Source: Candidatus Omnitrophota bacterium (lineage in GTDB: Bacteria > Omnitrophota > Gorgyraeia > Zapsychrales > JAHFFX01). From it: a stretch of DNA of 64,000 nucleotides. The translations under genes were made by a program, and so were the position numbers. The stretch covers positions 1,688 to 65,687 of the forward strand of contig JAHFFY010000009.1 of NCBI GenBank assembly GCA_023247705.1, written 5' to 3'. Below are positions 462-29,700 of the stretch, piece after piece (within the stretch, counting starts at the first letter, position 1; every line of letters begins with the position of its first letter). The notes below the pieces were generated by a model. The model saw only the letters and a list, made by a program, of their open reading frames with translations. It ran no database searches and had not been told where the DNA came from.

Positions 462-571
462 TTTTATCTCGCATCTTCTGCCATGATTAAATTTTCCCTT
501 TCCGACTTTTAATCTTACGCTGATTCTATAGGTGCTGTCGTGAGATTTGGAGTTCCGTTTACTCAATAAAA

Positions 572-1210: not shown

Positions 1211-1279
1211 TTGCTCACTAAATAAATTTTTTTAATAATTGTAATACGATTTGAATAATAATTGGTATTATTAATTATT

Positions 1280-4591: not shown

Positions 4592-4638
4592 ACTTCCTTC
4601 TAACTAATAACTGAAACTAAGACAGGAAAATAGGTCAT

Positions 4639-5868: not shown

Positions 5869-6054
5869 CTTAAGAACGGGTTTTAAAAAAGTCCCGACCC
5901 AAGCCATAAGCGCTTAAATAACTTAAAACGCCCGTCAGAAAAAATTTTTTCAAGCCAAAATTTAAGGCTAAAATCAGAGACAATATAGATGTTCATAAAA
6001 AAATCTAATTAACGTGAGTTCGATATAAGATGTGAATAAGGGCTAAATGACTCC

Positions 6055-10253: not shown

Positions 10254-10256
10254 TAT

Positions 10257-10685: not shown

Positions 10686-10853
10686 TTTTCCTTTTCCTTT
10701 CTTTTAATCGAATCTCCTATGATTTACCCTCATTTATTCAACCTTTTATTTCTTGATCCAGTTAAAGAGATGGTGAACCTCGCTAGGCTGCGGCCGTAAA
10801 AATAACCGTTAACACGCCATCATTAATTTAGCATATTTTTGCTTCAAATAAAC

Positions 10854-13052
10854 CTACCAATAAAAAATTTTAAAATACCGAATACTGTCTAAAATAACCT
10901 TTATTTTGATCCTGGAGAGAATGTTCGAGTAAGTATCCGTCCATGGACGGATTTTTCGGGCGAGAGCCCCTTCTTTGATTGATTTCCACTTTAATTTTGA
11001 GGTCAATATCTGCGATTGCTGACGATCCCAGGTGATAGCGACCCAAGAAGAATCGAATCGGTTATAAGAAATCTCTCCATTTTCTTTCAAATACACATTC
11101 CCCCCTGAAACAGCGCCATTGGCGGCTAAAATTTCAGATAATTCCAAATATCTGTTACTGATATGAAAAAGGATCAACCCATCCCTTTTAAGAACCCTTT
11201 GGTAAACCTGCAGGGCTTCGACCGACAAAAGATGAATCGGGATCGAATCACTGCTGAAGGCGTCGATGATTAAAAGATCATATTTTTGCGCCGGTTGTTT
11301 TTGCAAAGATAATTTCGCGTCTCCAAAAATACAATTGACTCTGCCTGAGGCGTCTTTGAGATAAGTGAAATACCGCGTGGCCAGCTTATAAACATCCGGA
11401 TCAAGCTCAAAAAAATCCAGAGACTGATCCTCTTGGATATAGGATGCTAATGTCCCGGTTCCCAGGCCAACAATCCCGATTGTTTTAAACCCCCAAAAAG
11501 AAGATCTCAGGATCTCTCCCGCAGGAGTGGAATAATGATAATAGGTCAAAGGCGTCTTTTTATATTTCGCGTCCAGATATTGAGCTCCGTGTAAAGTCGT
11601 TCCATGCAAGAGAAACCGCGTATTGCCGTCATCATAAACCCTGTAGAGCCCGTAATAATTTCGGTGCCGTTCAATAAAGAACCGCAAAGCCCAAATGGCA
11701 TCTAATAAAGGCGTCAGAGCCATAATCAGGATCAAACTGATCAATAGCACCGTTTTCTTTTTATTGAATTCACTGAAAACAAATTTTAAACACACGAACA
11801 GAATAATCAACCCAAAGACATTGTATCCTTGATAAACCATCGGCCATATGATCAGAAGGATAACGCCATACATCAACCAGCGGAGATCATGAAAATTAAT
11901 CGGCTCTCTCTTTTTTCCAATCAACAGGCTTCCGGATAAAAGAATCAGGCCGACAAAATATTCCAGAAAAGAGGTCGTTGTCAGAGGGAGAATCCAGTTG
12001 ACAACAAAACCGCCGATGAAACTCCCCAGCGAAATAATAGCGTAAAAAAACGTCAGATGGGCTTTCCCTCCGGGTTTTGTTTGGTAAAGTTCTCGCTGAC
12101 AAAACATGCAGATGTGAAATAAAAAGAAGGCATAAAAAAAGAGCTCAATGACAAAAGGGATCATCGACCTTTTAAAATTCAGGAAATAAAATAATACGCT
12201 CCCCCCCATCGTCAAATATAATTTCTCATTAATCCAACGTGGACACCACGGCCGTTCTTTAAAATTCAAAACAAAAGAAAGAATATATAAAAACAGCGGC
12301 ATCATCCATAAGAGCGGAATCGGAGCAACCTCCGCAGTAATAATATTGGTGACGGACAAAAACATGATTGATCCGGTCATCCCCAGCAACAACCACCGGC
12401 TCACATCCTCTCCGTCAATCGTGATCACCGTGTCGGTGGATCGCTGTCTCTTTTCTTTCTTGACCCCAATGAACGCCAGCGACGCAACTTGCAAGACAGC
12501 TAGAATGAAATAACCGGCCCGCCAGATGTTCAGCTGTATTTTAAGATCAAAAAGGGATTCGAACAAAAACGGATAAGATAAAAGGGCGGATAAAGATCCC
12601 AGATTGGATACGGAATATAACGCATAGGGGTTGGTGCGTTCTTCTAATTCAGATGAGGAGACCCAGGCTTGCAAAACAATGCTAAACGTTGCGAGAACAA
12701 AAAAAATGCTTCCGATATTTTTCAATAATTGCCAGAAGACATCCACCGCCAAAGGCAATTGACTATTGATCGAAATGGAAGTCAATTGTCCACCCGGCAA
12801 AAACAGAAGTGGCAATAAGACCAATCCCGCATGCACCCAGCGGTAACGATCGATTCCCCATCTTTGAATGGCAAAATGGGCGTAGACATAGCCCAGCAAG
12901 AGGACCGCCTGAAAAAAGACGATACACCCTCCCCAGACTAAATAACTTCCGCCATACAATGGCAATAAAATTTTGGCGATGATGAATTCGATTTGGAATA
13001 ATAGAAAAGCGGCGAGGAAAATAATGAGCTGAAAGAGATTGATCTTTCGCAT
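10854..13052 (-). CDS. fused MFS-like membrane domain + spermidine synthase family protein (paralog 3, best-conserved catalytic motifs)
   Basis: The N-terminal ~430 aa is multi-TM. The C-terminal segment GIVGLGTGTLASY...FFELDPDVYKLATRYF...GRVNCIFGDAKLSL...YDLLIIDAFSSDSIPIHLLSVEALQVYQRVLKRDGLILFHISN is a clear spermidine-synthase/aminopropyltransferase signature, including the DxxD block. Confidence 0.7.
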   Translation of the reverse strand: MRKINLFQLIIFLAAFLLFQIEFIIAKILLPLYGGSYLVWGGCIVFFQAVLLLGYVYAHFAIQRWGIDRYRWVHAGLVLLPLLFLPGGQLTSISINSQLPLAVDVFWQLLKNIGSIFFVLATFSIVLQAWVSSSELEERTNPYALYSVSNLGSLSALLSYPFLFESLFDLKIQLNIWRAGYFILAVLQVASLAFIGVKKEKRQRSTDTVITIDGEDVSRWLLLGMTGSIMFLSVTNIITAEVAPIPLLWMMPLFLYILSFVLNFKERPWCPRWINEKLYLTMGGSVLFYFLNFKRSMIPFVIELFFYAFFLFHICMFCQRELYQTKPGGKAHLTFFYAIISLGSFIGGFVVNWILPLTTTSFLEYFVGLILLSGSLLIGKKREPINFHDLRWLMYGVILLIIWPMVYQGYNVFGLIILFVCLKFVFSEFNKKKTVLLISLILIMALTPLLDAIWALRFFIERHRNYYGLYRVYDDGNTRFLLHGTTLHGAQYLDAKYKKTPLTYYHYSTPAGEILRSSFWGFKTIGIVGLGTGTLASYIQEDQSLDFFELDPDVYKLATRYFTYLKDASGRVNCIFGDAKLSLQKQPAQKYDLLIIDAFSSDSIPIHLLSVEALQVYQRVLKRDGLILFHISNRYLELSEILAANGAVSGGNVYLKENGEISYNRFDSSWVAITWDRQQSQILTSKLKWKSIKEGALARKIRPWTDTYSNILSRIKIKVILDSIRYFKIFYW

Positions 13053-13131
13053 CTTTGTGAATTTTTCTACGCTTCTGCGGTAATGTTGGGCGGATTTTCC
13101 GAGGATGAATGTCAGTTGCTAACAAATGATT

Positions 13132-13464
13132 CTAATTCAGCCACCGCAGACGCGTCTGACCGTCGTTTTTTTCGACCCAAACCAAGATCGGTGGATAGCC
13201 CCTTCTCTCGGCAAAGGTTTTAATCTTCGGATAAAATTTGAGCACATACTGACGGTCGCTCTCTTTAATGAACTCGGGATTTCCCAAGAGATATTCCTGA
13301 TCATATCCCCGGAAAACAATCTGACTTTGCCCCAGAATAACGGCCTCTTGGCGATCAATACCGTCAGATTTCTTCACTTGGGAAAGATAAGACTTCATAA
13401 TCGCTTCTTTAGAAAAATCCTGTTGCCTCGAAGCACATCCTAGCATAATAAAAATTAAGATCAT
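13132..13464 (-). CDS. small lipoprotein of unknown function (ORF is open up to 13554; internal Met start preferred)
   Basis: The ORF track gives 13132..13554. The internal start MILIFIMLGCASRQQ looks like a lipoprotein signal peptide with an LGC lipobox. The mature part is hydrophilic (GYDQEYLLGNPEFIKESDRQYVLKFYPK...). Confidence 0.4.
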   Translation of the reverse strand: MILIFIMLGCASRQQDFSKEAIMKSYLSQVKKSDGIDRQEAVILGQSQIVFRGYDQEYLLGNPEFIKESDRQYVLKFYPKIKTFAERRGYPPILVWVEKNDGQTRLRWLN

Positions 13465-13561
13465 AGATGATTTGGATATTTCTTTGCTAAAACAGTCTAT
13501 CACCGGGCGAAAGAATGCCGTGGATGTTGGGAAGGTTGGGATATGATTTCGCATATTTAAA

Positions 13562-14821
13562 TTATGATTCTATCTTTTGCTTCAGCTGATTGAGCTCATC
13601 GGAAAGTTGCTTGATTTTTAAATCTCTCTGCTTAATCGATTGCTCGGAAAGTTCGTTTAATTGTTCCTGTTGGCTTAGCTGTCTTTTAAGATCCGCGATG
13701 ATTTTATCTTTTCCCTGGGATGGCCCTTGTTCTTTCTTCAGCTCATTTTCAAGCGAAACTAATTCTTTGTTCTGCTCCTGGATAACATCCGTTCTGACTT
13801 TTATTTCTTTTTTTTGGTCTTCCAGTTTCTTTTTAAATTTTCCTATTTCCTGTTTCAAAGCGGCGATTGATTTATTCAGTTTGACTTTAGAGGCGATCGG
13901 TTGTTTCTTATCTGTTTTTTCTTCGGCCTTTTTATTCCCCGCGACTTTTATATTCTCTCTCTGATAAGCCATTAATTGCTTCTCCAACAGTTTAATTTTT
14001 TGCTGATAAACGGCGATTTCTTTCTGATACAGTCCATTGGTCTGATTTAATTTTTCTTTCAAAGCAACGGTCTCTCCATTATATTTCTTCATGAGTTGTT
14101 TGATCTGATCTTGATCGACGGTTACTTTTCTGACCGGAAATTTTTGACGGACAGCCTGTTGTTTCATCATGGACAACGCTGAATCCCGACTCCGCAGTTC
14201 TTTCTCTTTTTGTTCCAAAAGGTTTTCATAATTGTCAATCCGGTGCTGCGCTTTATTGAGATCCGCTTTATTTTTCAAAAGAGCGTACTGGATCTTTTGG
14301 ATAGATTGCGTGCTGGTTAGATTTTGAGTTTGTTGCGAGCGCTCGTTGGCGGGATGGAGTTTAGATTCCAGGATCTTCAGCTGGCGTTCTTGGTTGCTAA
14401 TCTTCTTTTTTAGGAAATCTCTTTCTTTTTGGAGCTGATACGTCGAGTCAACCGCAGTGGGCTGAACCCGGCTGAAAGATCCCCGTGTGGATTGTTGATA
14501 AAAAAAATTTTCATCTTCCGATTTTTTCCCTTGAGAATAAAATTGCAGAGCGTACTTGGAAACAATATCCGGAGGGATATCGCGAGGCAAACCCATTCCT
14601 GCCTTGGCTAAATACACGCGGGCGGTCTCACAGGAAGGATCAATCAAAAAAGCTTTGCTAAATTCTTCGATCGATTTTCGGAAACGACCTTCCTCATAAA
14701 ATTTCTTTCCCAAATCACAATAATATTCAACGCTCAGCCGTTCCGCCCAAGTGATTTCACTGATTCCTAAAAACAGAAACATAAAAAGAACAATCTTGGT
14801 GTCCAATCGAGATGTGTGCAT
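13562..14821 (-). CDS. secreted TPR-like + long coiled-coil protein
   Basis: It has a signal peptide (MHTSRLDTKIVLFMFLFLGISEITWA) and a TPR-like helix pair (YYCDLGKKFYEEGRFRKSIEEFSKAFLIDPS). After that comes ~300 aa of K/E/Q-rich heptad-like sequence (QLKILESKL...LKQEIGKFKKKLEDQKKEIK...). Confidence 0.55.
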   Translation of the reverse strand: MHTSRLDTKIVLFMFLFLGISEITWAERLSVEYYCDLGKKFYEEGRFRKSIEEFSKAFLIDPSCETARVYLAKAGMGLPRDIPPDIVSKYALQFYSQGKKSEDENFFYQQSTRGSFSRVQPTAVDSTYQLQKERDFLKKKISNQERQLKILESKLHPANERSQQTQNLTSTQSIQKIQYALLKNKADLNKAQHRIDNYENLLEQKEKELRSRDSALSMMKQQAVRQKFPVRKVTVDQDQIKQLMKKYNGETVALKEKLNQTNGLYQKEIAVYQQKIKLLEKQLMAYQRENIKVAGNKKAEEKTDKKQPIASKVKLNKSIAALKQEIGKFKKKLEDQKKEIKVRTDVIQEQNKELVSLENELKKEQGPSQGKDKIIADLKRQLSQQEQLNELSEQSIKQRDLKIKQLSDELNQLKQKIES

Positions 14822-15288
14822 AGCCGTCCCTTTTCATAAGTAGTTCAATCGAAGATGATATTGTCAAAATCCCTACATCCTTGCGAATTCTTTCATCATT
14901 TAGGAATTTTAGAAGAGTATTTATTAAAATCACATGCGGCAAGTATACCACCCTCAAAAATCAATTGTCAAGACAACCATTTTGGTCTCAAGACGCACAT
15001 ATGTTCTATCCCGAGGTTGCTTTTATCATCCAGACGAGCTGATCCCTTTTTACTCAATGCGGCTTAACTGCGGCTGTTGTTTCGGAACCATCCCCATCAA
15101 AAGGGGAAGATTCTGCATCGTGGCGGGCTCCATTTTGAATATAAACGGCGACAGGCCTTCGATGTGGATATTCTGCAGATCCTGCAGAGGAACCGGCAGA
15201 GGAATGCCATCGGGATCGCGTTTGATCTGCAGGTTCAAATGATTCGCGTTGAAGAAGTTTTGGGTTGTCTGCTCTTTGTGACTTCCCG

Positions 15289-15340
15289 GGGACATCCCTG
15301 CCATCTTTCGCCTTAGGCAACGGATGGCAGGGATGTCCCT
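15289..15340. promoter_or_regulatory. perfect 16-17 bp inverted repeat (stem-loop) in the divergent intergenic region upstream of mutS
   Basis: GGGACATCCCTGCCATC (15289-15305) pairs exactly with GATGGCAGGGATGTCCC (15323-15339) around a 17-nt loop. It overlaps the ATG of a small minus-strand ORF (15050..15304) and lies ~70 nt upstream of the mutS ATG. Confidence 0.4.
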
Positions 15341-15410
15341 TCGTTCGTCAAAGCCCTGTCCCTTTCCCCAATATTCCTTATTTCCACGATGAACATTTTA
15401 TGCTATAAGA

Positions 15411-18059
15411 ATGCCTATGGAAAATACCACCCCGATGCTCCGGCAGTATAACGAAATTAAAAAACAACATCCGCAAGCCATCCTGTTCTTCCGCCTCGGA
15501 GATTTCTATGAAATGTTTTATGAAGACGCCAAGGTCGCCTCCAACATCCTGGACCTTGTTTTGACCGGACGTTCCAACGGACGTAGCGAAAAAGTCCCGA
15601 TGTGCGGGATCCCGTATCATTCCGCGGAAGGCTACATTGCCAAACTCATCAAAGCCGGATTGAAAGTCGCCATCTGCGAACAGGTTGAAGACCCGGTGCA
15701 AGCCCAGGGTATTGTCAGGCGCGACGTAATCCGCACCATCACCTCAGGAACATACTTAGACGACCAAACAACCGATTCCCGCTATATCCTGGCCCTCAGT
15801 TTTAATGGAAAGGTCTGGGGAATGGCGATGATCGAATCCACCAGCGGCACGATCCAGGCGAACCAATACAGCGACCCGCAGCGGATCATTGAGATCATCG
15901 CCAAGATGCCGATCTACGAATGTATCTTCGCCGAGAATGATGAAGAAAAAATCAAAGAATTATTCCGTCATCATTTGGTCCGTATGAAAAATATCATTTT
16001 AAGCCCTTACGACGACTGGTATTTTAACGCACAGATGGCTAGAAAAAGTTTGTGCGATCATTTCAAGATCCACAACTTAAGCGGCTTCGGCATCGAAAAT
16101 CATCCTTTGGCCCAGGCCAGCAGCGGAGCGCTCCTGGAATATCTCAAGCAGATGAACAAACAACCGCTGCGCCATATCGATAAAATCAGTCTTTATACAG
16201 ACAGCTCTTATGTTTTTATTTCACCCGCCGCCTGTTATGGATTAGAAATGGAAGGCTTGTTAAAATTCATTGATCAAACGCTGACTTCGCTGGGGAAACG
16301 CAAACTGCGATACTGGATTTATCATCCGCTCAAAGACATTCCAGCCATCGAAGAACGACAAGACGCGGTGACCCTGCTCAAGGATTCTGCGGAAATCCAG
16401 CGTGCCCTCGAAAATTTATTGAGAAACACCCCTGATCTTGAAAAAAACATTTCTCGTTTAAGCTGCGGCTACACCTCGCCCAAAGACATGCTGGCGATCC
16501 GCAACACCTTACTGAAAATTCCTCTCTTGCAAGACGCGCTTAAAAATATTCAAAATCAGCTCTTCGCGCTCGAGGACATTCCTGAATTGCGGGAACTTTT
16601 GGAAAAAACGATCAATCCCGAGATGCCCCTTTCCCACAGCGAAGGAAAAGTCATCCGCACTGGATATCATACCGAACTTGATGCACTGAAAGACCTCCAG
16701 GAAAACGGCCGGAAATGGTTACAGAATCTCCAGGCCCAGGAAATCAAACGCACCGGGATCAATTCGCTGAAAATCGGATTTAATCAGGTCTTCGGTTATT
16801 ACATTGAAATCACCAAGGCGAATCTCAACAGCGTTCCCTCCGACTACATCCGGAAACAAACGCTGGTCAACGGCGAACGTTTTATCACGCCAGAACTGAA
16901 AACCTTCGAAGAAAAAATACTGACCGCCGAGGCCAAGATCCTGAAGATCGAAAACGAAATCCTCAATGAATTGAAACAGGAAATCTTAAAACATTCCGTG
17001 GCCTTGCATCATTTTGCCAATCACCTCGCGACGGTCGATGTCCTGTATGCCTTAAGCGTCTTGTCCCGTTTGCCCATTTACATCCGTCCCACCCTTACTG
17101 ATGACACCACCATCGATATCAAAGACGGCCGGCACCCGGTGGTCGAACGGACATCCTCTGATTCCTTTGTGGCCAACGACACCCTACTCGATTGCAGTGA
17201 AAATCATCTGATCATTTTGACCGGTCCGAACATGGCGGGAAAATCGACTTACATCCGTCAAACCGCGATCCTGGTCATCCTGGCACAGATGGGCAGTTAT
17301 ATCCCGGCGACCGCGGCGCGTATCGGGATCGTGGATAAAATTTTTACGCGCATCGGGGCCCACGATGACATCAGCAAAGGACAAAGCACCTTTATGGTTG
17401 AGATGAATGAAACCGCCGACATCCTCAACAATCTTTCCGGGCGAAGCCTCGTGATCCTCGATGAAATCGGCCGCGGGACCAGCACTTCCGACGGATTGAG
17501 TTTGGCCTGGGCCCTGGCCGAACATCTGCAGCAAAAAAAAGTGCGCACCATGTTCGCCACCCATTTTCATGAACTCGTGGCTCTGGCGGAACAATATTCG
17601 GGCGTCAAAAATTATAATGTCGCGGTCAAAGAATGGAAAGATGAAATTCTGTTCCTGCATAAAATCATTCCCGGCGGCAGCGATGACAGCTACGGGATTT
17701 ACGTGGCCAAACTCGCCGGGATCCCGGAGGCCGTAATCCAGCGCTCCAAAGAAATCCTCACCGAGTTGGAATTGAAGAATGATTTAAAAGAAAAGACCAA
17801 GATATCGCCTTCCGGGGAAAATCAATTGTCCTTATTTGGTCAGCCGGCGATCGGGGGCGGCACAGAAAGCAAACTGAAAACCCCGACTGTTTCTGTGCCG
17901 CCCCCTTCGTCCCTTTCATCGTCCCTGATCAAAGAACACAGCGATGCGTTGATGAAAGAAATCAAAGCCATCATCCAGTCCATGGACATTAATTCATTGA
18001 CACCGTTGGCGGCGTTGAATAAGATACATGAGTTAAAAAACAAAATTGAAAAAGGATAA
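15411..18059 (+). CDS. mutS: DNA mismatch repair protein MutS (MutS1 type)
   Basis: It has the N-terminal mismatch-recognition domain (TPMLRQYNEIKKQHPQAILFFRLGDFYEMFYEDA), Walker A (LTGPNMAGKSTYIRQ) and the ABC ATPase signature (STFMVEMNETA...DEIGRGTSTSDG). It is 882 aa. Confidence 0.95.
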   Translation: MPMENTTPMLRQYNEIKKQHPQAILFFRLGDFYEMFYEDAKVASNILDLVLTGRSNGRSEKVPMCGIPYHSAEGYIAKLIKAGLKVAICEQVEDPVQAQGIVRRDVIRTITSGTYLDDQTTDSRYILALSFNGKVWGMAMIESTSGTIQANQYSDPQRIIEIIAKMPIYECIFAENDEEKIKELFRHHLVRMKNIILSPYDDWYFNAQMARKSLCDHFKIHNLSGFGIENHPLAQASSGALLEYLKQMNKQPLRHIDKISLYTDSSYVFISPAACYGLEMEGLLKFIDQTLTSLGKRKLRYWIYHPLKDIPAIEERQDAVTLLKDSAEIQRALENLLRNTPDLEKNISRLSCGYTSPKDMLAIRNTLLKIPLLQDALKNIQNQLFALEDIPELRELLEKTINPEMPLSHSEGKVIRTGYHTELDALKDLQENGRKWLQNLQAQEIKRTGINSLKIGFNQVFGYYIEITKANLNSVPSDYIRKQTLVNGERFITPELKTFEEKILTAEAKILKIENEILNELKQEILKHSVALHHFANHLATVDVLYALSVLSRLPIYIRPTLTDDTTIDIKDGRHPVVERTSSDSFVANDTLLDCSENHLIILTGPNMAGKSTYIRQTAILVILAQMGSYIPATAARIGIVDKIFTRIGAHDDISKGQSTFMVEMNETADILNNLSGRSLVILDEIGRGTSTSDGLSLAWALAEHLQQKKVRTMFATHFHELVALAEQYSGVKNYNVAVKEWKDEILFLHKIIPGGSDDSYGIYVAKLAGIPEAVIQRSKEILTELELKNDLKEKTKISPSGENQLSLFGQPAIGGGTESKLKTPTVSVPPPSSLSSSLIKEHSDALMKEIKAIIQSMDINSLTPLAALNKIHELKNKIEKG

Positions 18060-18154
18060 TCAGTTGTCGGGTTACGGGTTTTACGGGTTAGCGGGTTAAA
18101 TGAGCTAATTTCAAACCCGTTAAACTCGCAACCCGCAAACTCGCAAACTAATTT
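18060..18154. repeat. G/C-rich direct and inverted repeats in the mutS-mutL spacer (possible attenuator/terminator-like structure)
   Basis: CGGGTTA / CGGGTTTTA / CGGGTTA / GCGGGTTA repeats are followed by their complements AACCCGTTAAACTCGCAACCCGCAAACTCGCAAAC. A stem GCGGGTT...AACCCGT is possible. There is no clear T-run. Confidence 0.3.
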
Positions 18155-19966
18155 ATGGGCAAAATACACCTTCTCTCCCCAGATATCATCAGCAAAATCG
18201 CCGCCGGAGAAGTCATCGAGCGTCCGGCATCGGTCATTAAAGAACTCATCGAAAATTCGCTGGATGCCGGGGCGACCGACATTGAACTCCATCTGAAAGA
18301 AGCCGGCAAAACCCTCATTCGCCTGAAAGATAACGGATCGGGAATCGAACCGGATGATCTGGAAAAAATTTTCCTTCGGCATTCCACAAGCAAAATCAAA
18401 GACATCGAGGATCTTTTCAATATTCATTCGTTAGGATTCCGCGGCGAAGCGCTCTACAGCATCGGAGCAGTGGCGGACGTGACGTTAAAAAGCAAGACCA
18501 ACGGTCAGGACAACGGCTGGCAGATCCACATGCGCGGCGGGCAACAATCGCAGCTGAAACCCGTGGTCATGGGCCAAGGCACCGATATCGAAGTGAAGGA
18601 ACTTTTTTTCAACACTCCGGCGCGTAAAAAATTTCTCAAAACCAATTCGACCGAGATCAATCAAATCCTCAATATTTTTCTTCCCTATACGTTGTTATAT
18701 CCCCAATGCCGTTTCCTTTTATCGCATCAGGACAAAACGTTGATCGACCTGCGCTTAAGCAAACAATTGAAAGACCGCATCGCCCAGTCTTTAAACCTCG
18801 AGACCAAACATTTGCTCGAAGCTCAAAAAAATTTTTCGGAAGAAAAAATTTCAATACACATGGTCTTGGGTGACATAAACATTCAGCGGGCTCAAAGAGA
18901 CATGCAGTTTCTCTTCATCAATGACCGCCCTGTGCAAAACCGCGCCATTCTCTTGCGCATGAACCAACTTTACCGTGCGCTCCTCGCGCCGGATGTCTTC
19001 GCGTTCTTCAGCCTCTCTATCGAAATCCCACCGGAAGACGTGGACGTCAACATGCATCCCACCAAAAAAGAGGTCAAAATCAAAAGCGAAACAGAAATAA
19101 TCAATCTCATCAGCGCGTTAGCGCAAGAAACGCTCCTCAGCTGCAGTAAAGCCAAACAGGTGAGCCTTCCAATATCCAAAAAAGAAGAACAAGTGGTGAA
19201 CAATGATCTCTCCTCACCCGTCATTCGCGAAAAACAATCGGCGCAATCATCGTCATCCGTATCTTCTATAAAAAACCTTAAATCCGATCCCGCTGAATCC
19301 ATTGAACCATTCGGCAAATACGCCGCCCAACATTACGCCTTTCAAAACCCTCCCGTCAAGGAAGGCCAAACGGCAAATTTTTTGACCGAAGAAGAAAACA
19401 CGCTGAACTACAAACTTGCGATTGCCCGTTATATCGGGACGTTTATGAAAAAATTCCTGATCTTCGAGACCGGCACCTCGCTTTTGGTCGTCGATCAGCA
19501 CGCGGCCCAGGAACGGATCGCCTACGAAGGATTTATCAAACAAATGAGTTTGGGAAAAATCGAAGTCCAATCGCTGTTGAGTCCATTTCTGTTGAAACTC
19601 TCCAAGCAGGAACTCCTCTCGTGGGAAGAAAACAAAACGAAACTGGAAGAGATCGGAATCAGCACCAACTTGTGGGACAAAGAAACGCTTGCGATTCACA
19701 GCTACCCGCATCTTTTGAAGAAACCCGAGATCGCCACCCGTTATCTCCTATCCGGAGAAACGATCACGTACTGCGACCACGAAACCATCGCCCGCAGGGC
19801 CTGCCGTTCCTCGGTCATGGCCGGAGACGCTATGGGCCCCTCGCAGGTCGAATATCAACGCCAACAACTCCTCAAATGCCAGGACCCGTTCACCTGTCCG
19901 CACGGGCGACCGACCGTCATTGAGATGACGGAAAATTTTCTGGATAAACAATTTTTACGGAAATAA
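18155..19966 (+). CDS. mutL: DNA mismatch repair protein MutL (endonuclease-type C-terminal domain)
   Basis: It has GHKL ATPase motifs (ELIENSLDAGAT; LGFRGEAL). The C-terminal endonuclease motifs are DQHAAQERIAYE, ACRSSVMAGD and CPHGRPT, typical of MutH-independent MutL. It is 603 aa. Confidence 0.95.
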   Translation: MGKIHLLSPDIISKIAAGEVIERPASVIKELIENSLDAGATDIELHLKEAGKTLIRLKDNGSGIEPDDLEKIFLRHSTSKIKDIEDLFNIHSLGFRGEALYSIGAVADVTLKSKTNGQDNGWQIHMRGGQQSQLKPVVMGQGTDIEVKELFFNTPARKKFLKTNSTEINQILNIFLPYTLLYPQCRFLLSHQDKTLIDLRLSKQLKDRIAQSLNLETKHLLEAQKNFSEEKISIHMVLGDINIQRAQRDMQFLFINDRPVQNRAILLRMNQLYRALLAPDVFAFFSLSIEIPPEDVDVNMHPTKKEVKIKSETEIINLISALAQETLLSCSKAKQVSLPISKKEEQVVNNDLSSPVIREKQSAQSSSSVSSIKNLKSDPAESIEPFGKYAAQHYAFQNPPVKEGQTANFLTEEENTLNYKLAIARYIGTFMKKFLIFETGTSLLVVDQHAAQERIAYEGFIKQMSLGKIEVQSLLSPFLLKLSKQELLSWEENKTKLEEIGISTNLWDKETLAIHSYPHLLKKPEIATRYLLSGETITYCDHETIARRACRSSVMAGDAMGPSQVEYQRQQLLKCQDPFTCPHGRPTVIEMTENFLDKQFLRK

Positions 19967-19986
19967 TCTTTATTTAAATCAAATAT

Positions 19987-20015
19987 TTGACGCTGGAGAA
20001 AAACTATTGTATATT
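19987..20015 (+). promoter_or_regulatory. candidate sigma70-type promoter for the small-protein/retropepsin module
   Basis: TTGACG is separated by 17 nt from TATATT, a near-consensus -35/-10. An AGGA Shine-Dalgarno lies ~7 nt before the ATG at 20035. Confidence 0.4.
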
Positions 20016-20034
20016 GTTTGCGATAGGACACACG

Positions 20035-20292
20035 ATGAACAAACCATTCTCCAAAAAACAACCAATCTTGATTGACGACGATTCCTGGCTCAAATCCCAT
20101 TTTGAGTGGCTGATTGATCATTATCCCGGCCAATATGTCGTGGTTGCCAAAGGCGAAGCGTTCATCGGCCGTAACGTCATCGCCCTCGAACGTCAAGCCA
20201 GAGAAAAACATCCTCACGCCACGACAACAGGGATGCCCATCCCGCGACAGCAGGATCTCTTCGCGATCCGCCGTCAGTGGTTTCGTAAATGA
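20035..20292 (+). CDS. small protein of unknown function (possibly DUF5678-like), co-transcribed partner of the retropepsin-like protease
   Basis: The ORF track starts at the TTG at 19987; the first ATG at 20035 gives MNKPFSKKQPILIDDDSWLKSHFEWLIDHYPGQYVVVAKGEAFIGRNV... Its stop overlaps the next ATG (ATGA at 20289-20292). From memory, small proteins of this type (YPGQYVVV.KGE motif) are often found next to bacterial retropepsin-like proteases. Confidence 0.45.
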   Translation: MNKPFSKKQPILIDDDSWLKSHFEWLIDHYPGQYVVVAKGEAFIGRNVIALERQAREKHPHATTTGMPIPRQQDLFAIRRQWFRK

Positions 20293-20702
20293 ACGAGATC
20301 ACCTTTTCGTATAAAACTTACAAAAAAACGCATTACCCCATCATCCCTATCGAAATCACCAATAAACGCACCAAAATCAAAACCAACGCCTACGTTGATT
20401 CCGGCGCTTCATTGTCAGTTTTTTCGATCAAAGAAGCGGTACGGCTGGGCCTGGACCGCCGCAGCGGACGGAAAGCCACGATCACCGTGGGAGACGGAAG
20501 TTTTGTCACGATTCATCTGCACAGGCTTTCGGTCAAAATCGGACACAGCCATCTCAAAGCGACGATCGGGTTTTCTCCAAGACTGAGCGTCAATCTGATC
20601 GGACGGAAAGATATCTTCGAATTTTTTGATATTACCTTCAGCGACAAAGACAAAATCGTTTCGTTTTACCCGCGTAAAGCCTCGATAAAACCGGCGGATT
20701 GA
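20289..20702 (+). CDS. retropepsin-like (retroviral-type) aspartic protease
   Basis: The catalytic motif is AYVDSGASLSVFS (D-S/T-G-A). Downstream is the flap/dimer motif NLIGRKDIFEFF, comparable to ILG.D.L. At 137 aa it is typical of single-domain bacterial retropepsin homologs that act as homodimers. Confidence 0.7.
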   Translation: MNEITFSYKTYKKTHYPIIPIEITNKRTKIKTNAYVDSGASLSVFSIKEAVRLGLDRRSGRKATITVGDGSFVTIHLHRLSVKIGHSHLKATIGFSPRLSVNLIGRKDIFEFFDITFSDKDKIVSFYPRKASIKPAD

Positions 20703-23700
20703 TTTGTTTTTCAAGAAATGGTTCTCGATCAGTCCGGCGACTTTGTCTCTTTCGATCCGGCCAGAAACCACCGCAGCCCAAATCACTATCCTGATCAAAA
20801 ACTCAACAAAAAGATCATAACTTAAAAAATAGATCAAGAGACTACTTCCCATATTCAAAACAGGGATATGTCGCGAAAAGCTCAATTGCGTTCCTGCTGG
20901 TTCTTCAGAGGATCGACTCCGGGGGACGCGCCAAAATTGATGATGTCTTTTTCCTTGGGACGCAAGACCGGGACGATCAGATCGCATCAGCAAGAGCGTT
21001 GCCCCCAAAAGAACAATAAAGAAAAACTCATTGATACCTGCTGACGTTCCAAACGCGATGGTGCGATGGGAATCATCATCTTGTTTTTTTTCTTTTAATC
21101 GCTTTCTTTTTTGTTTTGGCGGACCGAATTGAGGTCTCCCCCGGTCGATTTGTGAAATAACAATCACCGCAGCGATCAATAATAAAACAATAAACGACCA
21201 TCCGGTATGTTCCGTGAAGAAATCCACCAGATCAAAAAAGATTCTTTCAAACGAGATGTCGGTGAAACTTGGGACAAAGCTCATGACAACTTCCTCAGTC
21301 GAACCACTCCTCATTCCTAATTTCACCAATTCCGGTGTATATAACTCTCCCATGCGTGAATAGAAAATATTTTTGATCTCCCAGGGCAGATTGGTTTTTT
21401 CAATAAATTCGTAGGTTTCTTTAAGGCTACGCAGGATTCTTTCCTGGGCCCTCGTCATCCGCGGTGGGGAAAAATTATCGCGGTGATTAAAAACTTTGAT
21501 GAGCTGGGCTGCCCTATATAGAGAAGAACCCGATGCCAGTACCCTGCGCAGATGCGGCACCGCGAAATCCTCCAGCAGCCCCAGGGCGCCGCGTCCGTAT
21601 GGACCACGGTTGAAAAAATAGTATTGATAGGAAGGTTGTTGATTCGTAAAAAAGATCCCCAAGATCAGGAGGATCAATACGGCCGGAGTTGGGACCAGCA
21701 TATTGGCATATAATATTTGCCTTGTTCTTTCGTCTCGATTCGGTTCTTCTATCTGCCTTAAAAGAATCCTTTGCCAATCCGTAAAATCCTCATATCCTTC
21801 TAAAAGCCTCCTGATATCGTCCACGGAAAGATTCGTTTCGCGTAAAACCCGGTGGATCAAGGCCTGGATCCTGATAAAATCCACTTCGGTATGCTCTTCC
21901 CATCGGATCCATTCAGGATGTGCGATATGAAAATATTCCCGGGAACGCTCAGCGAGATTAAAGTGATCGAGCTGTTGCGGATAATTTAAGGAAAGCGCGA
22001 GCAGAACCAAAACAAAGGTATCGACATCGTCGAATTTCGGGTCGGCGATCATTCGTTCGATTATGAATTTCGTGTTGATTCCGTACTGCTGTTCCAAATG
22101 ATTCCGGTCAATAAAAGAATCAAGAAAATCGACGAGGCTTTGCCGGCCTCTCACCATGTCAATCATCTGAGCCAGAAGCTGACCTTTCAACGCGTGAATC
22201 GTGTCCGTAATATTTTCGACCATCCCGATCGAAGGAATTTCTTCGCCTCTTTCCAGCCGGGCATACATCTGGGGGGATAGGCCTGCTTCCTGAGCCACCC
22301 AACCCGATGGCAACCAGAGCGTTAAACGCAACTGGGCCAATTCACGCCCCATGGAAACGGTTGTTTCTCCGTTGATCAGATAACCGATATCGGTCCCGAA
22401 CGCCCATAATCCTCGGATCGAAGTGAATAAGGCAAAATTCTGGATCTGCCAGCTGCGTATCTTATTTAATCCGATCAAATATCCCAGTTGATAATCGCTG
22501 TACCCATTACGCTGTTTCAAACGTTCGACTCTTTCGATAAACAATGATCGCTCAAAGTTGCGAATGTCATCAGGCCCTCCCAATCCCAGCAATAACCAAC
22601 GGACACTCAGATTAAGATAATTGACCAACGATAGAACGCTGGTCCTATAAAGATTAGGGATCCTGCGTTGAGCAGGCAAAACCGCGAGCTGGGATTTAAG
22701 CTGGTAAACCGTCCGGGCCCCGAGGACTCTTTCCTCAAAAAGTTTTGTCCATGAGCTTCCCATGTCCTGTAAACGATCGTTGATCCGCTCCGGAAGATAT
22801 CTCAGACGGTCAAAATAATCCAGAAGCGACGGCCGGGATAAAATGGCAATGGCCTCTTGAATTAAAAAATAGGTGTACGATTTCGAATAGCCTAATGATT
22901 GCACCATTTGATCGATGGTTTTGGGAGCTTCTGAAATTCCTAAATACCCATTGATAAACTTGATCAGCAAAGTAGATTTCAGCATGCCATCGTATCGCCC
23001 ATCGGCCATGCGCGCATAAACATTCTGAATCATTCTGGCCTTAGGGCCATAAATTCGTCCTTCAAGCACGTTTTTCAAGAAAACAATTTCGTCTTTACTA
23101 ATGAATCCTTTCAGCATGGCCTCATCTTCTTGAACCAATCCCCCTAACGCTTCGTTTACTTGTAAATCCAGGGCCATGACCAAACGGACAAGACCGCTGC
23201 CCCGGGAAGGAAACTGTATGGTTAACATCCGTGAGGCAAATTTTGGTTTGACCTCCAGGCGTTGTGCAAGAATTTTGCTGCCGATCCGTTTTCGTCGGGC
23301 AATCGCGCGTAACCGTAACGGAAGAGTTGCGAGATCCGGTTGTTCCATCGTCTCGGATTGAGAAATGATGATATCTTCCATAGGAATTTTGAGATCGATC
23401 AATCTTGCCATCGCGACATTCAAACCGATCGCGATCTTTCTTAAACTTTCGAGTTCCGCGTCACGTCTGCCATTTTCTAGCGCCGGCACAATGCGGTTAT
23501 CAATATCGGCTTGATCGGCTAACTGTTGACGGCCTAATCCTCTTTTTAAACGGACATATCTGATCCGCGCGCCGATGGACTTGACGATTTCCTCCCGGCT
23601 CGGGATCCGGGGATGAGCGTCGAGACGCTGGTCGGGCCTTTTTTCCCAATTCACCTCGGACATCAAGAAAATCATCAATCCTAAGAATAAAATTTCCACC

Positions 23701-26700
23701 CCCAACGCTGGAAATCCGACGACCGCGTAATGCCCTTCGTCATTCGTTCCTTGCAATTGCGCCAATAGGACTTTCTGCCAATCGGTGAGATCTTCGTAGC
23801 CTTCCAAGAGGGTGCGAATATCTTCCAGCGAAAGATGTGTTTCCAAAACAACCCGATCCACCAAATGATGAATTGTTTCTAAATCAATTTCTTCATTTCC
23901 TGGAATCTGGGGTGGAACGGCAAAATTGATATGCACATATTCCGAAGACCGTTCGGCAAGATTATGGTAATCGAGTTCTTGGGGATAATTGAGCGAGAGC
24001 GCCAACAAGAACATCACGAAGGTATCGATGTCTTCAAATTGAGAATCAGCAATCATCCGTTCGATAACGAATTGAGTGTTGATCCCGTATTGTATTTCCA
24101 AATGATTCCTCCGGATAAAATCATCCAGAAATTCGGTCAGACTTTGGTTTTTGCGGACCCGATCAATCATCAGCATTAAAAACTGCCCTTTCAGAGCATG
24201 CATCGTGTCGGTGATTTTCTCGATGATCGCTATGGTCGGCACCTCTTCACCGCGTTCGATGCGGCTATAAACCCACGAAGATATTCCCGATTCCTGGGCA
24301 ACCCAACGTCGCGGAAGCCACAACGATAAACGCAATTGTTCCAGATCACGTCCCATCCCTGCGGTCGTTTCACCTTTGATCAAATATCCGAGATCGGTTT
24401 CGAGTCCCCAAAACGCTTTCGTTGCCGTCAATAAAGCCAACTGCCGGACCGGATGAACTTTAAAATTATCCAAGCCCACAAATCGTCCCAGTTGGCTCGT
24501 TGTGTAACCTTTGCGCGTCTTCAGACGTTCGAGCCGTTCTTCTAACGATGTCGCTTCGACTAACCTCGCGTCTTCCGATGTACCCAACCCTAACAATAAC
24601 CAACGCACATTCACGTCAATGGCATCGGCCAGATCGATCGTTATAGGGAGAAATAAATTATGAACCTTTCGCTGAGCAACAGGAACCCCAAACTGTTCTT
24701 TGAGAAGATAAACGGATCTGTTGTTTGATACAGCCCGATAAAGATCAACCCATTCCATATTTTTTTCTTTTAACCGCAGATCTATCCGATCGGGGATCAA
24801 ACGAAACGCGTTAAAATAATCCAAAATTTCCGGACGGAATAAAACCGCGTAGGCCAGCATCCGCAAACGCTGCACGCGGTGCCGGGAATAACCGGTGGCC
24901 GCAGCAATTTGTGCGAACGATTTCGGGCGTCCGTCCAATCCTAAATATTCACGGACAATCCGCGCCAGGAGTCGCGCGTCAAGCATGTGATCATAGTCTT
25001 CCTTCGACATCCGCTCATAAGCCTGAACCACTTTGCGGGAAAAAGGGCCATAGATTCTTTCTTCCAAAATATTTTTCAATAACATATGTTGTTCTGAGTT
25101 CACAATACGTTCCGGTTGACTTGTCACCGCAGAGATCGAAGCCAAAACCTCAGAAACCTCAGCATCGATCGCGATGATCAGACGGATCAAACCGGTCATA
25201 CGCTCAGGAAAATCCAAGTTAAACAATCGCACCGCCGAAGCTCTTTGAATCTCCAGGCGTTCGGCGAGCTCTTGATAATTCATGCGCTGACGTCTAAAAA
25301 TCGCTAATAGCCTCGCCGGCAAGGTTTGTAAATCGGGTTGAGGCGTAGGCTGTTGCGCGGGAAATTCTTTAAATTCAATCATTGCTTCTTTAACGAGTTT
25401 CAAATCAAGTAAACGCGCCAAAGAAACTTCCATGGCCATGCTTAACTTCATCAAACTTTCAAGCGACGCGTCTCTCTTCCCTTCTTCCAAAGGACCGATG
25501 AGGCCTCCTGATATTTTATATTTTCTTCTTAATTCTGTTCTGGTTAATCCGCGTTCTTCCCGGACATATTGAACCCGGCCACCGATGACGCGCATGATTT
25601 CTTCCCGGTTGGGAATGCGCGGCCGGATGGCCACGCGTTGATGATGTTTTCTATCATCATTAAACTGCGTCATCAGGAAAATCATCACGCCAAAAAAGAT
25701 CCAAGTTATGTCACCCGGTCCGTTGAGCACCGGGAAAGAAAACGCCAATAAACTTTCCGGTGAGTCTGTAGGCCGCCCGAGATGTTCAGGGTTGGCCGTT
25801 TTTTTGAACCGGGAAAGAAACGGATAATCTCTCAAGGCATATACCCATAAGGTGAATAAAACCATGATTTGCCAAAGCAACACGCGCGGTTGAAGCAAAA
25901 ACCCAATAACCAATAACGACGATAGAATTGCAGCCTCCAAAGAAGAAAAGCGGTAAGGAACAAATCGCCGGTCCTTGCGCGGCCACAGGACGTTGAACAA
26001 TTCTTCTCTGTTCTTAAATTGAAAGAGCGAAATCGTCCCTAGCATAAAACTCACGGTGCTCAATCCCAGAAAAATATAATTTTTCGGTTGGGGTAAAACG
26101 AAAGTCAAATAAGACAAAAGAGAAAAAAGATTGATCGAAGCGTGATAAGCGACTGCCGCCACCAATCCCAATCGATAAAAAATATAGCTTAGGAAGAAAG
26201 TGTCCAGCATTCGCAAACTGATCAGAAAATAATCACTCTGCTCATGGAGAATGACAAAAAGAAATGAAATGACGACCGCAGAAATCCCAAAGGCCCACCG
26301 CTGTCCGAGCCGCGATAGAATTTTAACCAAACTTCCCATGGCCACTCCTCGGGCGACGAATTCTTCCGCAATGGCGGCTTGAATGGTTCCCTCGAAACTA
26401 TACGCGAGGATACCAAACCACGAGAAGTCCACCAGCAGCGGAGGTTGATAACTGGCATTTACTTTAAAACGAAGAATCGACCGAATGATCACCGCACCGG
26501 TTAAAAACAAACGCATCAAAATGACCGAATGAAAAGCGATCTTGATCGCATGCAAGAATCCCGGGACCCATTCCTGTGTTCGCACCCATTGCGAACGGAA
26601 AGCGAAGATCAACATCCCTTGGATGAGAATCATTGTCAAGGCTATCTCCAAACCGACGATGACCAAGGACATTTTCGGTTCATCTTGTTTCACCCACGCG

Positions 26701-29700
26701 CTGAAAGATTTCTGCCCTTGATAAAGGATCCTTTCCATGAAGATCTCTTTTCCGGTGGACAATGTTCTTTGCGCCATCATCTCGATGAGATCCAGAGGGA
26801 CTTCAAAAACGTTATATCCCTCCAGCCTTTGCACGGCCTCTTCCTTATCGATGCCGCTTCTTAAATCGCCCACCGGCCTTAAGAAATTTTCCAAATCAGC
26901 ATCGGTTTCCACCTGATGCTTGGGTACGAACCCCACAAACAAGGTCCTGTCGTCAAAGATCAAACGATATAACCGGTAAATGCCCTGGGCCGTATAAACA
27001 TGGTGATAATACAAATCTTTCGACATCAATTTATGATCCGGACGCCTGAGCGCTTCCAGAATCTTTTCAGCCAATCTCCGCCGGAGTTCGGCATTCTTTA
27101 AAATCATGAGTAAATCAAACATGGAAGAATCATCCAGGATAGCGATCTTAGCAATGAACTGCGGAACAACAGCTCCTCCCGGACTCATTGGCCCGTTGAT
27201 CTCCACTGATTCCAGCAAAAATTCGACCCACTCTGCTACGCGCTCGGACACTAACGCGCTTAGGCCGCGCAAGTCGATCGCCAGTTCAATGATGCGTCGT
27301 TCGATGCCTGTATTCTCACCGACAGCCCGAAGATACTCATGATAGGTGCCTTTGAGCAAGGCCTCTTTGATCTCGGTAAGATTTCCCTGTTTTGGAATCG
27401 TAATTTCGCTTAGGTCCAGATTGTTAAACCAATCCAATAAAACCCAGCTGTCGAGTTCCAGGATCAGCAAACTCGCGTCCTCAGCTGAATACGCGGCGGT
27501 TAGAATGTTCTCTAATTCAACCGTCTTTTCTCTATAAAAAGAAATCTCTCGATAATAAACACCCAAACTTGTTTCATTAAAAATTTCCGGATCTAACTCA
27601 ACAACATTGATCCAATAATACAAAGCTTTCTGTTTGTTCCCGATCTTGTGATACGCTTCGGCGAGCTGTTGATCAATTGAAATTGTTCTTTTACCTTGCA
27701 GGACAACGGACTCGAGGTAAGTGATGACCTGAGCCGGATGATCGAGTTTGCTATGAACAAATCCCAAATGTTCATCAAGATCGGGATAATTTTCGTTTAA
27801 GTGTTCGACGCGTTCAAAATCCTCAACGGCGTTCTGGTACTCGCCCAGATATTCATAAGCCAATCCCCGATGGAAATGGCTTTCCATGAGACTCCCGGGA
27901 CCGGACGTCAGGACAGACGGAGCAAGGGCAATGGCCTCGTTAAATTCTTCAATGCCCCATTTCCATTGCTGAATATTCATAAAAGCCATCGCTCTGCGAT
28001 AACGGATCATGAAAGAATCATTGCTCTGTGCATTCATCTGCTCAGGGCTCAACATCATGTCTTCTAAAATACCCACCGCTTGGTTCAAGAGAGGAATCTG
28101 CAAAGACTTTAACCACTCCTTCGCGAGATCGAATATTTGCTTATTCTCCAACCGTTGGCCGTGATTTGCCCGCGCATCCCGAATCCGCAACACCAGTTCC
28201 GGAATACGATCCACGGGAACATAACGGGTCAAATTCGTGACAAATGGCATAAACTTAAGAAACGCGCCACCCTTATCTTCCCAGTTCCTCAAGATGATCT
28301 GTTGAATCATCGACATGAGCGCAACATCGCGGTATGCCTGGGCATCGGGCTGCACCCCATCAAAAAATTGTTTGCGTATCAAAGCCAGACGGACATCAAG
28401 CATATTTTCTCTCAATGGAATCGATTCGGCGGTGATCCCGGGAAACTCAGGTGGGATATATTTTTCTACGCCAGCCCTTTCATATCCCTTAAACGTAATC
28501 ACTTTATTATTATTTCCCGTTAACATCTGTGGGATAAATTCCCCCATGGCGCGCGCTCCATAGTGGTGAATGTATTTGATGGATGCTTCGATCGTCCTTC
28601 TTTGAAGTTCCAAAAACAGATCATCACGGCCATCCAGGAGATAATTATAGGCCCGCTCACTCGCTAAGACCATTCGGCTATAATAGAGACTGACGTCTTC
28701 ATACACCGGACCGATCACGATTCTGATATTCCGATAACCTTCAAGTCTTTTCCCGCGGATGAAATTGAAGAACGCCCGCTCAAACGGATGACGGGGGATC
28801 GTAAAAGCGTTCTTGGTCGAACTTTTTTGATTCTGGCTTTGCCGCCGTTTGTTCTCGGTATCGACCGTCAGCTTGATCCGCTTGACTAAAATGTCATCCG
28901 ATTCATAATCATCCGACAGCAAACGTTCTTTATCCCCTTCTTTGAGCTGTTCTTCATCGATGCTTCCCGTGGCCTGAAGCACGATGACAAAATGCGCTGT
29001 TTTTCCTCCCAATTGGTCAAACATTTGATCGATGGTTTCTCTGGCTTCCTGAAAATCCAATTCCGAATAATAAGAATCATAAATGACCGCCCATCGCAAT
29101 GGATTCTCAACGATATGCACGGAATCAATCGTCTTCTTAAGTCGATTTTGTTCCGATAAGAATGCGTTTAAAAAATCATTGGCGATGCTGCCGTGCAGTC
29201 CTTCGAACAGAACACTCTTCTTCAACGCGTCGATTTGCTTTCCTTTCGAACCCATCGCCAAGATGGGTGTCAAAAGAACCGACAATTCACGGATGTCCCG
29301 GGCAAAATTCTTGGCAAACAAAGCTAGACCGTCCTGATGTCTTTGCCGTTCTTCTTCATCGCGGCTATCTTCGATCTTCTGCGCAAGAATGCGGCTGGTC
29401 ACCTCAATCGCACTTTGAAGGATTAAATTGATCGAATTTCTCTCCGACTCCCGTGAGGAACGTCCTGAACCATTGACCATCATCAAGGACCAAAAACCAA
29501 AACTTAAGATCAACAGAATAACCATTTGATCTATCCCCTCCGTCCCGAGGGCAAATGGAATCGACCAAGCCGATGCAGGCTCATCCGGAAAATCGTCGTG
29601 AGGGAGGGCTCCTTTTTTTTGCGCAGGAGCTCTGGTCTTACTGTCTTTATTGGAGTTTGGTTTCTTTTCCTCGAATCTTTTCTTAGGCGGAGTAGGCCAA

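Follow-up and report, generated by a model that had tools for sequence, protein, structure and literature searches.

A tandem duplication of helix-turn-helix arrays behind predicted membrane anchors in a giant Omnitrophota protein

Architecture of the two modules

We analyzed a 64,000-nucleotide stretch of a Candidatus Omnitrophota assembly (contig JAHFFY010000009.1 of GCA_023247705.1, positions 1,688 to 65,687; hereafter the window), in which a single minus-strand open reading frame (ORF; window 20415-63908) encodes a giant protein of 14,497 amino acids (aa). Towards the C-terminus of this protein lie two consecutive modules, module 1 at aa 12717-13390 (window 23739-25760) and module 2 at aa 13391-14060 (window 21729-23738), delineated by blastp of each against the other and by Pfam searches. 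The original prediction, made from the sequence of window 21745-25760 (aa 12717-14055), was of a tandem duplication encoding membrane-anchored helix-turn-helix (HTH) arrays. Both modules share one order of parts: a hydrophobic anchor, a basic linker, two XRE-type HTH units (U1 and U2), a unit resembling region 4 of sigma70 (U3), three further XRE-type units (U4 to U6) and an acidic helical tail of ~145 aa (U7 and U8). We regard this anatomy as firm. All coordinates given for parts of the giant gene are window positions on the minus strand.

The predicted presence of XRE (Cro/C1-type) HTH domains was borne out by a hidden Markov model (HMM) search, which placed HTH_3 (PF01381; 40.1 and 43.9 bits, cutoff 23) and HTH_31 (PF13560; 39.8 and 38.0 bits, cutoff 27) above their Pfam gathering thresholds in both modules. 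The estimate of three to four units per module proved too low: Pfam and profile-profile comparison together revealed five XRE-type units and one sigma70-region-4-like unit. Significant Pfam stretches numbered two per module, corresponding to U1 (module residues ~47-124) and U6 (~465-530). U1 lies at window 25389-25622 in module 1 (HTH_3, E = 3.7e-10, with PDB profile matches to DdrOC and SinR) and at 23379-23612 in module 2 (E = 2.5e-11), and U6 lies at 24171-24368 (HTH_31, E = 5.7e-10) and 22167-22364 (E = 2e-9), respectively. Pfam searches with U2 to U5 and U7 in isolation gave nothing significant (for U2, sub-threshold matches only), and no additional units were detected with a local HMM derived from the U1 and U6 sequences.

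The intervening units were characterized by profile-profile comparison using hhalign, with three to five sequences per unit compared to a canonical XRE profile of 70 units from poly-HTH proteins. This gave probabilities of 99.4% for U1, 88.5-90% for U2, 97.3% for U4, 97.7% for U5 and 97.3% for U6, with matches spanning 54-61 columns each, versus 30.6% for U3 and ~0.2-0.3% for U7 and U8, which show no relation to the profile. By this comparison, with 57-61 columns matched, U2, U4 and U5 are homologous to the XRE family, with U2 the weakest of the three. U2 (window 25128-25346 in module 1, 58-61 aligned columns; 23127-23348 in module 2, whose copy was included in the unit profile) is a probable degenerate XRE-type HTH. 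U4 (24573-24827 and 22569-22826) and U5 (24369-24572 and 22365-22568) are degenerate XRE-type HTHs for which a profile that included two relatives described below (P0027 and P0006) also matched solved structures, namely the 434 repressor at U4 (E = 2e-3) and, at U5, the P22 C2 repressor (E = 8.6e-5). Both units also align with P0027, in which the U4 counterpart is a significant HTH_3 match.

U3 (window 24828-25100 in module 1; 22827-23099 in module 2) stands apart from its neighbors. Compared using hhalign to a sigma70 region 4 (sigma4) profile, it reached a probability of 91.7% (E = 7.7e-7 over 48 columns), versus at most 14% for the other units and 0.5% for a reversed control; this profile is small and was entered by hand, including an RpoD fragment taken from the PDB match. 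Region 4 of RpoD also accounted for four of the seven top PDB profile matches, in the expected register and with E values of 0.07-0.4 that are not significant alone, and the NCBIfam sigma70-ECF model weakly covered the same residues (E = 1.2e-3, below cutoff). Pfam Sigma70_r4 did not match U3, and neither Sigma70_r2 nor a related region 2 was matched by Pfam in either module. Together, the profile matches suggest that U3 probably belongs to the sigma70 region 4 family, as an isolated region-4-like domain and not as part of a sigma factor.

Structure prediction, which had been proposed as a further check, supported U6 but not the module as a whole. In an AlphaFold2 (AF2) model of U6 to U8, U6 had a predicted local distance difference test (pLDDT) score of 72-78 and the XRE helix pattern, and the tail scored below 50; an AF2 model of the whole module from two sequences reached only 36.5. 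The best Foldseek matches of the U6 model in the PDB were all XRE regulators (C.BclI, HipB, C.AhdI, SinR and ClgR), with a root mean square deviation of 1.4-2.0 Å over 53-59 residues and target-normalized TM-scores of 0.63-0.75. The HTH assignment, which was to be abandoned if profile or structure comparison failed, was not refuted: U1 and U6 pass the Pfam thresholds, and the U6 model superposes on known XRE structures.

The tail (window 23739-24170 in module 1; 21729-22166 in module 2) is ~145 aa long, all-helical and 60% identical between copies, with a proportion of nonsynonymous differences (pN) of 0.18-0.26. It carries a net charge of -11 to -16 (-6 for U7 and -10 for U8 in module 1). It is the most conserved part between the two modules and is strongly constrained. 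No match to it was found in Pfam, PDB sequence profiles, NCBIfam or PADLOC, nor by hhalign to the XRE or sigma4 profiles. Among the listed PADLOC anti-phage models (HTH, control proteins, capH and RmrA), the best-matching stretch always fell within the U1 HTH (residues ~50-127), and no match to defense regulators went beyond this generic HTH.

The tandem duplication and relatives of the cassette

The two modules align end to end with 48% identity and 67% positives over 670 aa (blastp, 610 bits, E given as 0.0), a similarity well above what chance would produce. We also identified an independent contig in the European Nucleotide Archive (ENA; L081, encoding the same MutL) that spans both modules and is 99.995% identical to window 8155-27711, with one mismatch in 19,557 nt. 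Because this assembly reproduces both modules, the tandem duplication of ~2 kb is not a mis-assembly and is real, as predicted. The two peptides originally quoted as evidence of paralogy were located at aa 13179 and aa 13847, with a spacing of 668 aa (2004 nt). Paralogy had been claimed at the DNA level as well as the protein level, and there the signal is weak: codon-aligned nucleotide identity is 56%, such that the copies differ at 44% of nucleotides, and direct comparison of the DNA revealed just three short ungapped stretches of 71-73% identity, 2001-2004 nt apart. No further copies of the module were found elsewhere in the giant protein.

Overall, the proportion of synonymous differences (pS) between modules was 0.72, which is saturated, compared with a pN of 0.36 that falls to 0.18-0.23 in U6-U7. 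Saturation at synonymous sites marks the duplication as ancient, and purifying selection acts on both copies. We rejected a recent duplication or gene conversion as the source of the high identity in U6-U7, because saturation of synonymous sites extends to these units as well; constraint accounts for the greater identity in the C-terminal part of the modules.

Relatives of the cassette are rare. An exhaustive HMMER scan of 1.84 billion representative proteins returned no full-length homologue of the module and two proteins that match its middle. The first (P0027; 602 aa) is a complete stand-alone gene, named in its source as a 'transcriptional regulator with XRE-family HTH domain', and is collinear with U1 to U5. 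The second (P0006; 1,415 aa, partial) comes from a Candidatus Omnitrophica metagenome-assembled genome (MAG) and carries U3 to U5; it is found right where its contig begins and is therefore the C-terminal end of a larger, N-terminally truncated protein. In a word-indexed search of 5.8 billion protein clusters, module 1 alone retrieved nothing, a four-sequence alignment retrieved P0027 only and a five-sequence alignment one generic XRE match. A profile search of genome contigs with the module alignment found no relative.

A metagenome scan identified one full copy of the cassette on a 78-kb contig from the Joint Genome Institute (JGI; L082). The 21.4 kb examined are a single uninterrupted frame of 7,141 codons with neither end closed, which indicates another giant gene. 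Its cassette shares 43% identity with each of the two modules, and no other similarity between the two giant proteins was found at E < 1e-5. The layout comprises the anchor with its switch from acidic to basic charge and U1 to U8, with an insertion between U4 and U5 and two transmembrane (TM) helices after the tail. This insertion, ~47 aa long (translation aa ~3685-3740), ends in 'LIWTALGLG', resembling the C-terminal motif of U4, 'VRWLLLGLG', and may represent a partial internal duplication. In copy number, originally proposed for comparison across related genomes, the window giant has two cassettes and L082 one. Since the modules are more similar to each other (48%) than to the L082 copy (43%), the duplication would most simply post-date the split of the two lineages.

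The surroundings of the cassette differ between the two giants. In the window, a CPBP/Rce1-like intramembrane protease domain (aa 12507-12595; window 26124-26390; Pfam PF02517, E = 4.5e-7, above cutoff) precedes modules 1 and 2, 140-220 aa upstream of the module 1 anchor, and a motif scan found its motifs EEFVAR, FVILH and HASIN (EExxxR, FxxxH and HxxxN) all intact. In L082, a GNAT domain precedes the cassette, S-adenosylmethionine (SAM) methyltransferases follow it and a CPBP domain lies ~2,600 aa upstream, a distance at which we set aside the idea of CPBP and cassette as a conserved pair. Taken together, the sequence relationships describe the cassette as a rare, Omnitrophota-associated module that moves among giant proteins not otherwise related and has a relative in stand-alone form. 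The U3-U5 core (sigma4-like, XRE, XRE) is a new combination common to giant proteins and the stand-alone regulator, and may show how giant genes gain modules.

Membrane topology and possible function

A TM helix had been predicted at the start of each module. A hydrophobic helix is present in both, although it is clear only in module 2. The best 19-residue Kyte-Doolittle mean was 1.49, a marginal value, for the module 1 anchor (ITWIFFGVMIFLMTQF; aa 12733-12749, window 25662-25712), which is followed by the basic linker RKHHQRVAIRPRIPNR, compared with 2.24 for the module 2 anchor (aa 13396-13414, window 23667-23723), also followed by a basic linker, and 2.31 for the L082 anchor. A low-confidence model shows the module 1 anchor as helical (residues 17-33). 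At both window anchors the N-terminal flank is acidic and the C-terminal flank basic (for module 2, no Lys or Arg upstream and three downstream), and the same pattern was read from the L082 sequence. Under the positive-inside rule, this polarity would place the HTH array in the cytoplasm. Omnitrophota giants that carry TM helices only have been read as membrane-anchored proteins with cytoplasmic domains (10.64898/2026.06.07.730766).

Because U1 to U5 are basic overall (net charge 0 to +7 each), U1 and U6 are XRE HTHs of the ordinary kind, P0027 is annotated as a regulator and the charge polarity of the anchors points inward, we favor, with a probability of roughly 45%, the reading of the cassette as a cytoplasmic, membrane-tethered, multivalent platform for nucleic-acid binding or regulation. 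In such a platform, the anchor would hold the cassette at the membrane's cytoplasmic face, the basic N-terminal units U1 to U5 would contact DNA, either loci of the cell's own chromosome or operators, and the conserved acidic part, U6 to U8, would serve as a partner-binding or autoregulatory element. The state of a giant envelope protein could thereby be coupled to the nucleoid or to transcription, like that of membrane-bound one-component regulators.

Several observations weigh against the platform. Exactly one hydrophobic helix lies between modules 1 and 2, and if it spans the membrane, the paralogues would face opposite sides instead of both lying in the cytoplasm. In L082, three predicted TM helices, an odd number, separate the GNAT domain from a SAM methyltransferase (translation aa 3148-4350), both of them cofactor-dependent enzymes expected in the cytoplasm. 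Given this conflict, some anchors must be non-spanning, or the predictions wrong, or the protein processed. Predictions of localization for giant proteins are unreliable according to the authors of an earlier survey (10.1101/2023.11.21.568195), and a single helix between paralogous cassettes offers a concrete test case for how far TM predictions in such proteins can be trusted.

The features expected of DNA-binding domains are also mixed. Conserved DNA-contacting residues in helix 3 had been suggested as a check, and the exposed recognition-helix positions of U1 instead differ among the three cassette copies (S/D/D, G/N/H and G/R/K), with Pro and Gly included. Electrostatics, a second suggested check, gave a split result, being net positive for U1 to U5 and negative for U6 and the tail; in place of the basic residues of canonical units, U6 carries the acidic 'GEE(V/I)P'. 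In the giant proteins, U4 and U5 are degenerate relative to their canonical counterparts in P0027 and P0006, and structural support is confined to U6. Variable helix-3 positions, an acidic U6 and degenerate U4 and U5 are as compatible with a fold repurposed to bind proteins as with DNA binding.

By analogy with RodZ, the cassette may therefore be a protein-interaction scaffold, its HTH folds no longer binding nucleic acid and instead docking cytoskeletal, envelope-synthesis or signaling proteins or, via the sigma4-like unit, RNA polymerase. This is the alternative that survives best, and we consider it rather unlikely. RodZ is a membrane-anchored XRE-family HTH protein with a basic juxtamembrane segment that binds MreB and not DNA (PMC9804626). 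The poorly conserved exposed positions of helix 3, the acidity of U6 and the tail, the degeneracy of U2, U4 and U5 relative to the stand-alone protein, and the location of the strongest constraint in U6-U7 and not in the basic units would all suit such a role. A scaffold fits less well with the net positive charge of U1 to U5 and with the scores of U1 and U6, which are still those of ordinary XRE HTHs. In addition, no partner is identifiable, the RodZ-type HTH_25 match is sub-threshold and the order of domains is reversed.

Processing of the giant protein would remove the topology conflict altogether. The ORF would then encode a polyprotein precursor, cleaved at or near the anchors by the CPBP domain or by another protease, which would free an anchor-plus-HTH protein or a soluble multi-HTH regulator. 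The CPBP domain is close to the module 1 anchor and has intact motifs, the cassettes are each headed by an anchor of their own, both of one charge polarity, as would be expected of independently inserted N-out/C-in proteins, and P0027 shows that a homologous cassette exists as a gene of its own. Cleavage of Omnitrophota giants into smaller polypeptides has also been proposed (10.1101/2023.11.21.568195). We nevertheless consider such processing improbable, as the adjacency of CPBP and cassette is not conserved in L082, where GNAT precedes the cassette, and no cleavage motif or internal start was identified. A bolder and still less probable extension is that the giant ORF is a membrane-inserted precursor with the cassettes as its regulatory output, in which CPBP, envelope stress or prey contact would trigger cleavage at the anchors and release or expose the six-HTH arrays. 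If so, the sigma4-like unit could engage RNA polymerase or promoters, and an envelope protein of 14.5 thousand aa would signal directly to the chromosome, representing a new kind of regulated-intramembrane-proteolysis transcription factor inside a giant protein.

Binding of prey DNA, which had been raised originally, would require an extracytoplasmic location, with one or both cassettes facing the periplasm or cell surface and capturing extracellular or prey DNA for a bacterium that depends on a host. Strict alternation across the single inter-module helix would put one cassette outside, many domains of giant proteins are predicted to lie outside the cell (10.1101/2023.11.21.568195), and a helix-hairpin-helix, another type of nucleic-acid-binding domain, occurs elsewhere in the giant protein. 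We judge this location very improbable, since the basic residues after each anchor favor the cytoplasm under the positive-inside rule and no N-terminal signal peptide was seen on reading the sequence of the giant protein. To our knowledge, XRE and sigma4 HTH domains are cytoplasmic in all characterized cases. The warning about localization predictions comes from the same authors who placed giant-protein domains outside the cell (10.1101/2023.11.21.568195). Finally, an assembly error or a decaying relic of fused regulator genes is effectively refuted: although repeats are prone to mis-assembly and several units are degenerate, the independent contig is identical over both modules save for its one mismatch, a 44% nucleotide difference is not that of collapsed or expanded reads, the 43-kb frame is open with pN far below pS, and the cassette is kept at 43% identity in another giant ORF.

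The giant protein, its surroundings and known systems

The ORF list, Pfam domains and hydropathy describe the product of window 20415-63908 as a mosaic polytopic membrane protein. Pfam domains include a CheR-like methyltransferase, a GFO/IDH/MocA oxidoreductase, an alpha/beta-hydrolase, TPR repeats, the Rce1-like/CPBP domain and the HTH units. At least 20 strongly hydrophobic segments were found, all from aa 6145 onward. The giant protein is thus a mosaic of enzymes and TM helices and not a structural repeat protein, and the original description of a giant structural protein does not fit. Its first 5,000 residues (window 48909-63908) have no Pfam match at E <= 0.01, making the N-terminal ~5,000 aa a very large unannotated region that is apparently soluble, with no strongly hydrophobic segment before aa 6145. 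The C-terminal 437 aa (window 20418-21728) contain a further hydrophobic anchor (aa 14070-14088) and roughly three additional TM-like segments, together with a basic tail of net charge +21, and have no Pfam or NCBIfam match.

Further nucleic-acid-binding motifs were seen in the part of the giant gene that holds aa ~5292-7073 (window ~42700-48035). The helix-hairpin-helix (HHH_6/T2SSK-like) lies at aa ~5292-5320. A weak HTH_3 match at aa ~6947-6971 and HTH_23/HTH_28 matches at aa ~7002-7073 both fall just downstream of the CheR-like methyltransferase (aa 6624-6728).

On the chromosome, the giant gene neighbors mutS, mutL and cstA. The closest MutS in a species-representative genome set belongs to a Candidatus Omnitrophota MAG (L001; 61% identity), compared with at most 45% for the other 79 listed loci, which points to an Omnitrophota bacterium as the host. 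This closest relative has no giant gene downstream of mutL, so synteny is absent. G+C content is 0.36-0.41 in the first ~14 kb of the window (1-14000) and steps to 0.45-0.51 across mutS, mutL and the giant gene (14000-64000). Three large ORFs, at 1262-4591 (1109 aa), 10854-13052 (732 aa) and 13562-14821 (419 aa), have no Pfam match; among the genes near them are those for a MORN-repeat protein (572-1210) and, at 6055-8550, for a protein of 831 aa with a spermine-synthase-like domain.

The modules had been said to have no obvious precedent, which is too strong given soluble proteins with 11-12 HTH_3 units, RodZ, BcrR and the second giant ORF with a cassette. Like other members of the XRE/Cro-C1 family, U1 and U6 pass Pfam, U2, U4 and U5 are related by profile-profile comparison and the U6 model superposes on C.BclI, HipB, C.AhdI and SinR. 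Here, however, five such units are combined with a sigma4-like HTH and a tail behind an anchor in a protein of 14.5 thousand aa, and in several of them the recognition helix and the loop after it are degenerate. Soluble poly-XRE proteins share the presence of many tandem XRE units in one polypeptide, but they consist of near-homogeneous canonical units over 850-2,059 aa and match only U1 of the cassette profile; no hydrophobic anchor, sigma4-like unit or acidic tail is evident when their sequences are read. Four of them (P0001, P0005, P0061 and P0094), known only from Logan assemblies of sequencing runs, are almost entirely tandem canonical XRE units, with 11 significant HTH_3 stretches in P0001 and 12 in P0061; P0005 and P0094 each have 10 matched stretches. 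Descriptions of poly-XRE arrays were sought in the literature, and nothing relevant was retrieved.

RodZ likewise holds an XRE-family HTH at the membrane via a TM helix with a basic juxtamembrane segment (PMC9804626). Its single HTH lies N-terminal to the TM helix and is followed by a periplasmic DUF4115, whereas in the modules the anchor precedes six HTHs, DUF4115 is absent, HTH_25 matches only at E = 0.02-0.05, below cutoff, and the order HTH_25, TM, DUF4115 is not found. BcrR is membrane-bound and, at ~200 aa, has one N-terminal HTH followed by a TM region. Like the platform, it combines an XRE domain (PMC3435297) with a membrane protein and would couple an envelope signal directly to DNA, but there is no homology beyond the generic HTH.

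The closest setting is that of the multi-enzyme, TM-only giants of the same phylum (10.64898/2026.06.07.730766; 10.1101/2023.11.21.568195), which share with the window protein a length of more than 10,000 aa, many TM helices, enzyme domains unrelated to one another and internal domain repeats with eroded similarity at the nucleotide level. With 14,497 aa, at least 20 hydrophobic segments, at least six unrelated domain types and an Omnitrophota genome, the window protein falls within the membrane-anchored multi-enzyme class described for these giants (10.64898/2026.06.07.730766). The 'Archaeovorin' type, marked by SecA and dockerin (10.1101/2023.11.21.568195), does not fit, as searches of the protein in 1000-aa chunks gave no SecA-DEAD, dockerin, TSP3 or C39 peptidase domain at E <= 0.01. 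The terms HTH, XRE and DNA-binding are absent from the main text of both studies, and HTH_3 records are absent from the parts of their supplements that we consulted (10.64898/2026.06.07.730766; 10.1101/2023.11.21.568195).

Omnitrophota giants are among the largest known proteins, and published analyses of them stress enzymes and domains for adhesion and secretion. A selected, conserved and membrane-tethered cassette of six HTHs suggests that some giants have a nucleic-acid-facing or regulatory arm, and it offers a compact, expressible and testable piece of ~500 aa, unlike the whole protein of 14.5 thousand aa. The individual domains belong to known families, and every component has precedent. 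What appears to be new, relative to the XRE, RodZ, BcrR and giant-protein systems compared here, is the hetero-array of five XRE units, a sigma4-like unit and an acidic tail, its placement after an anchor, forming a loop within a giant polytopic protein, and its tandem duplication.

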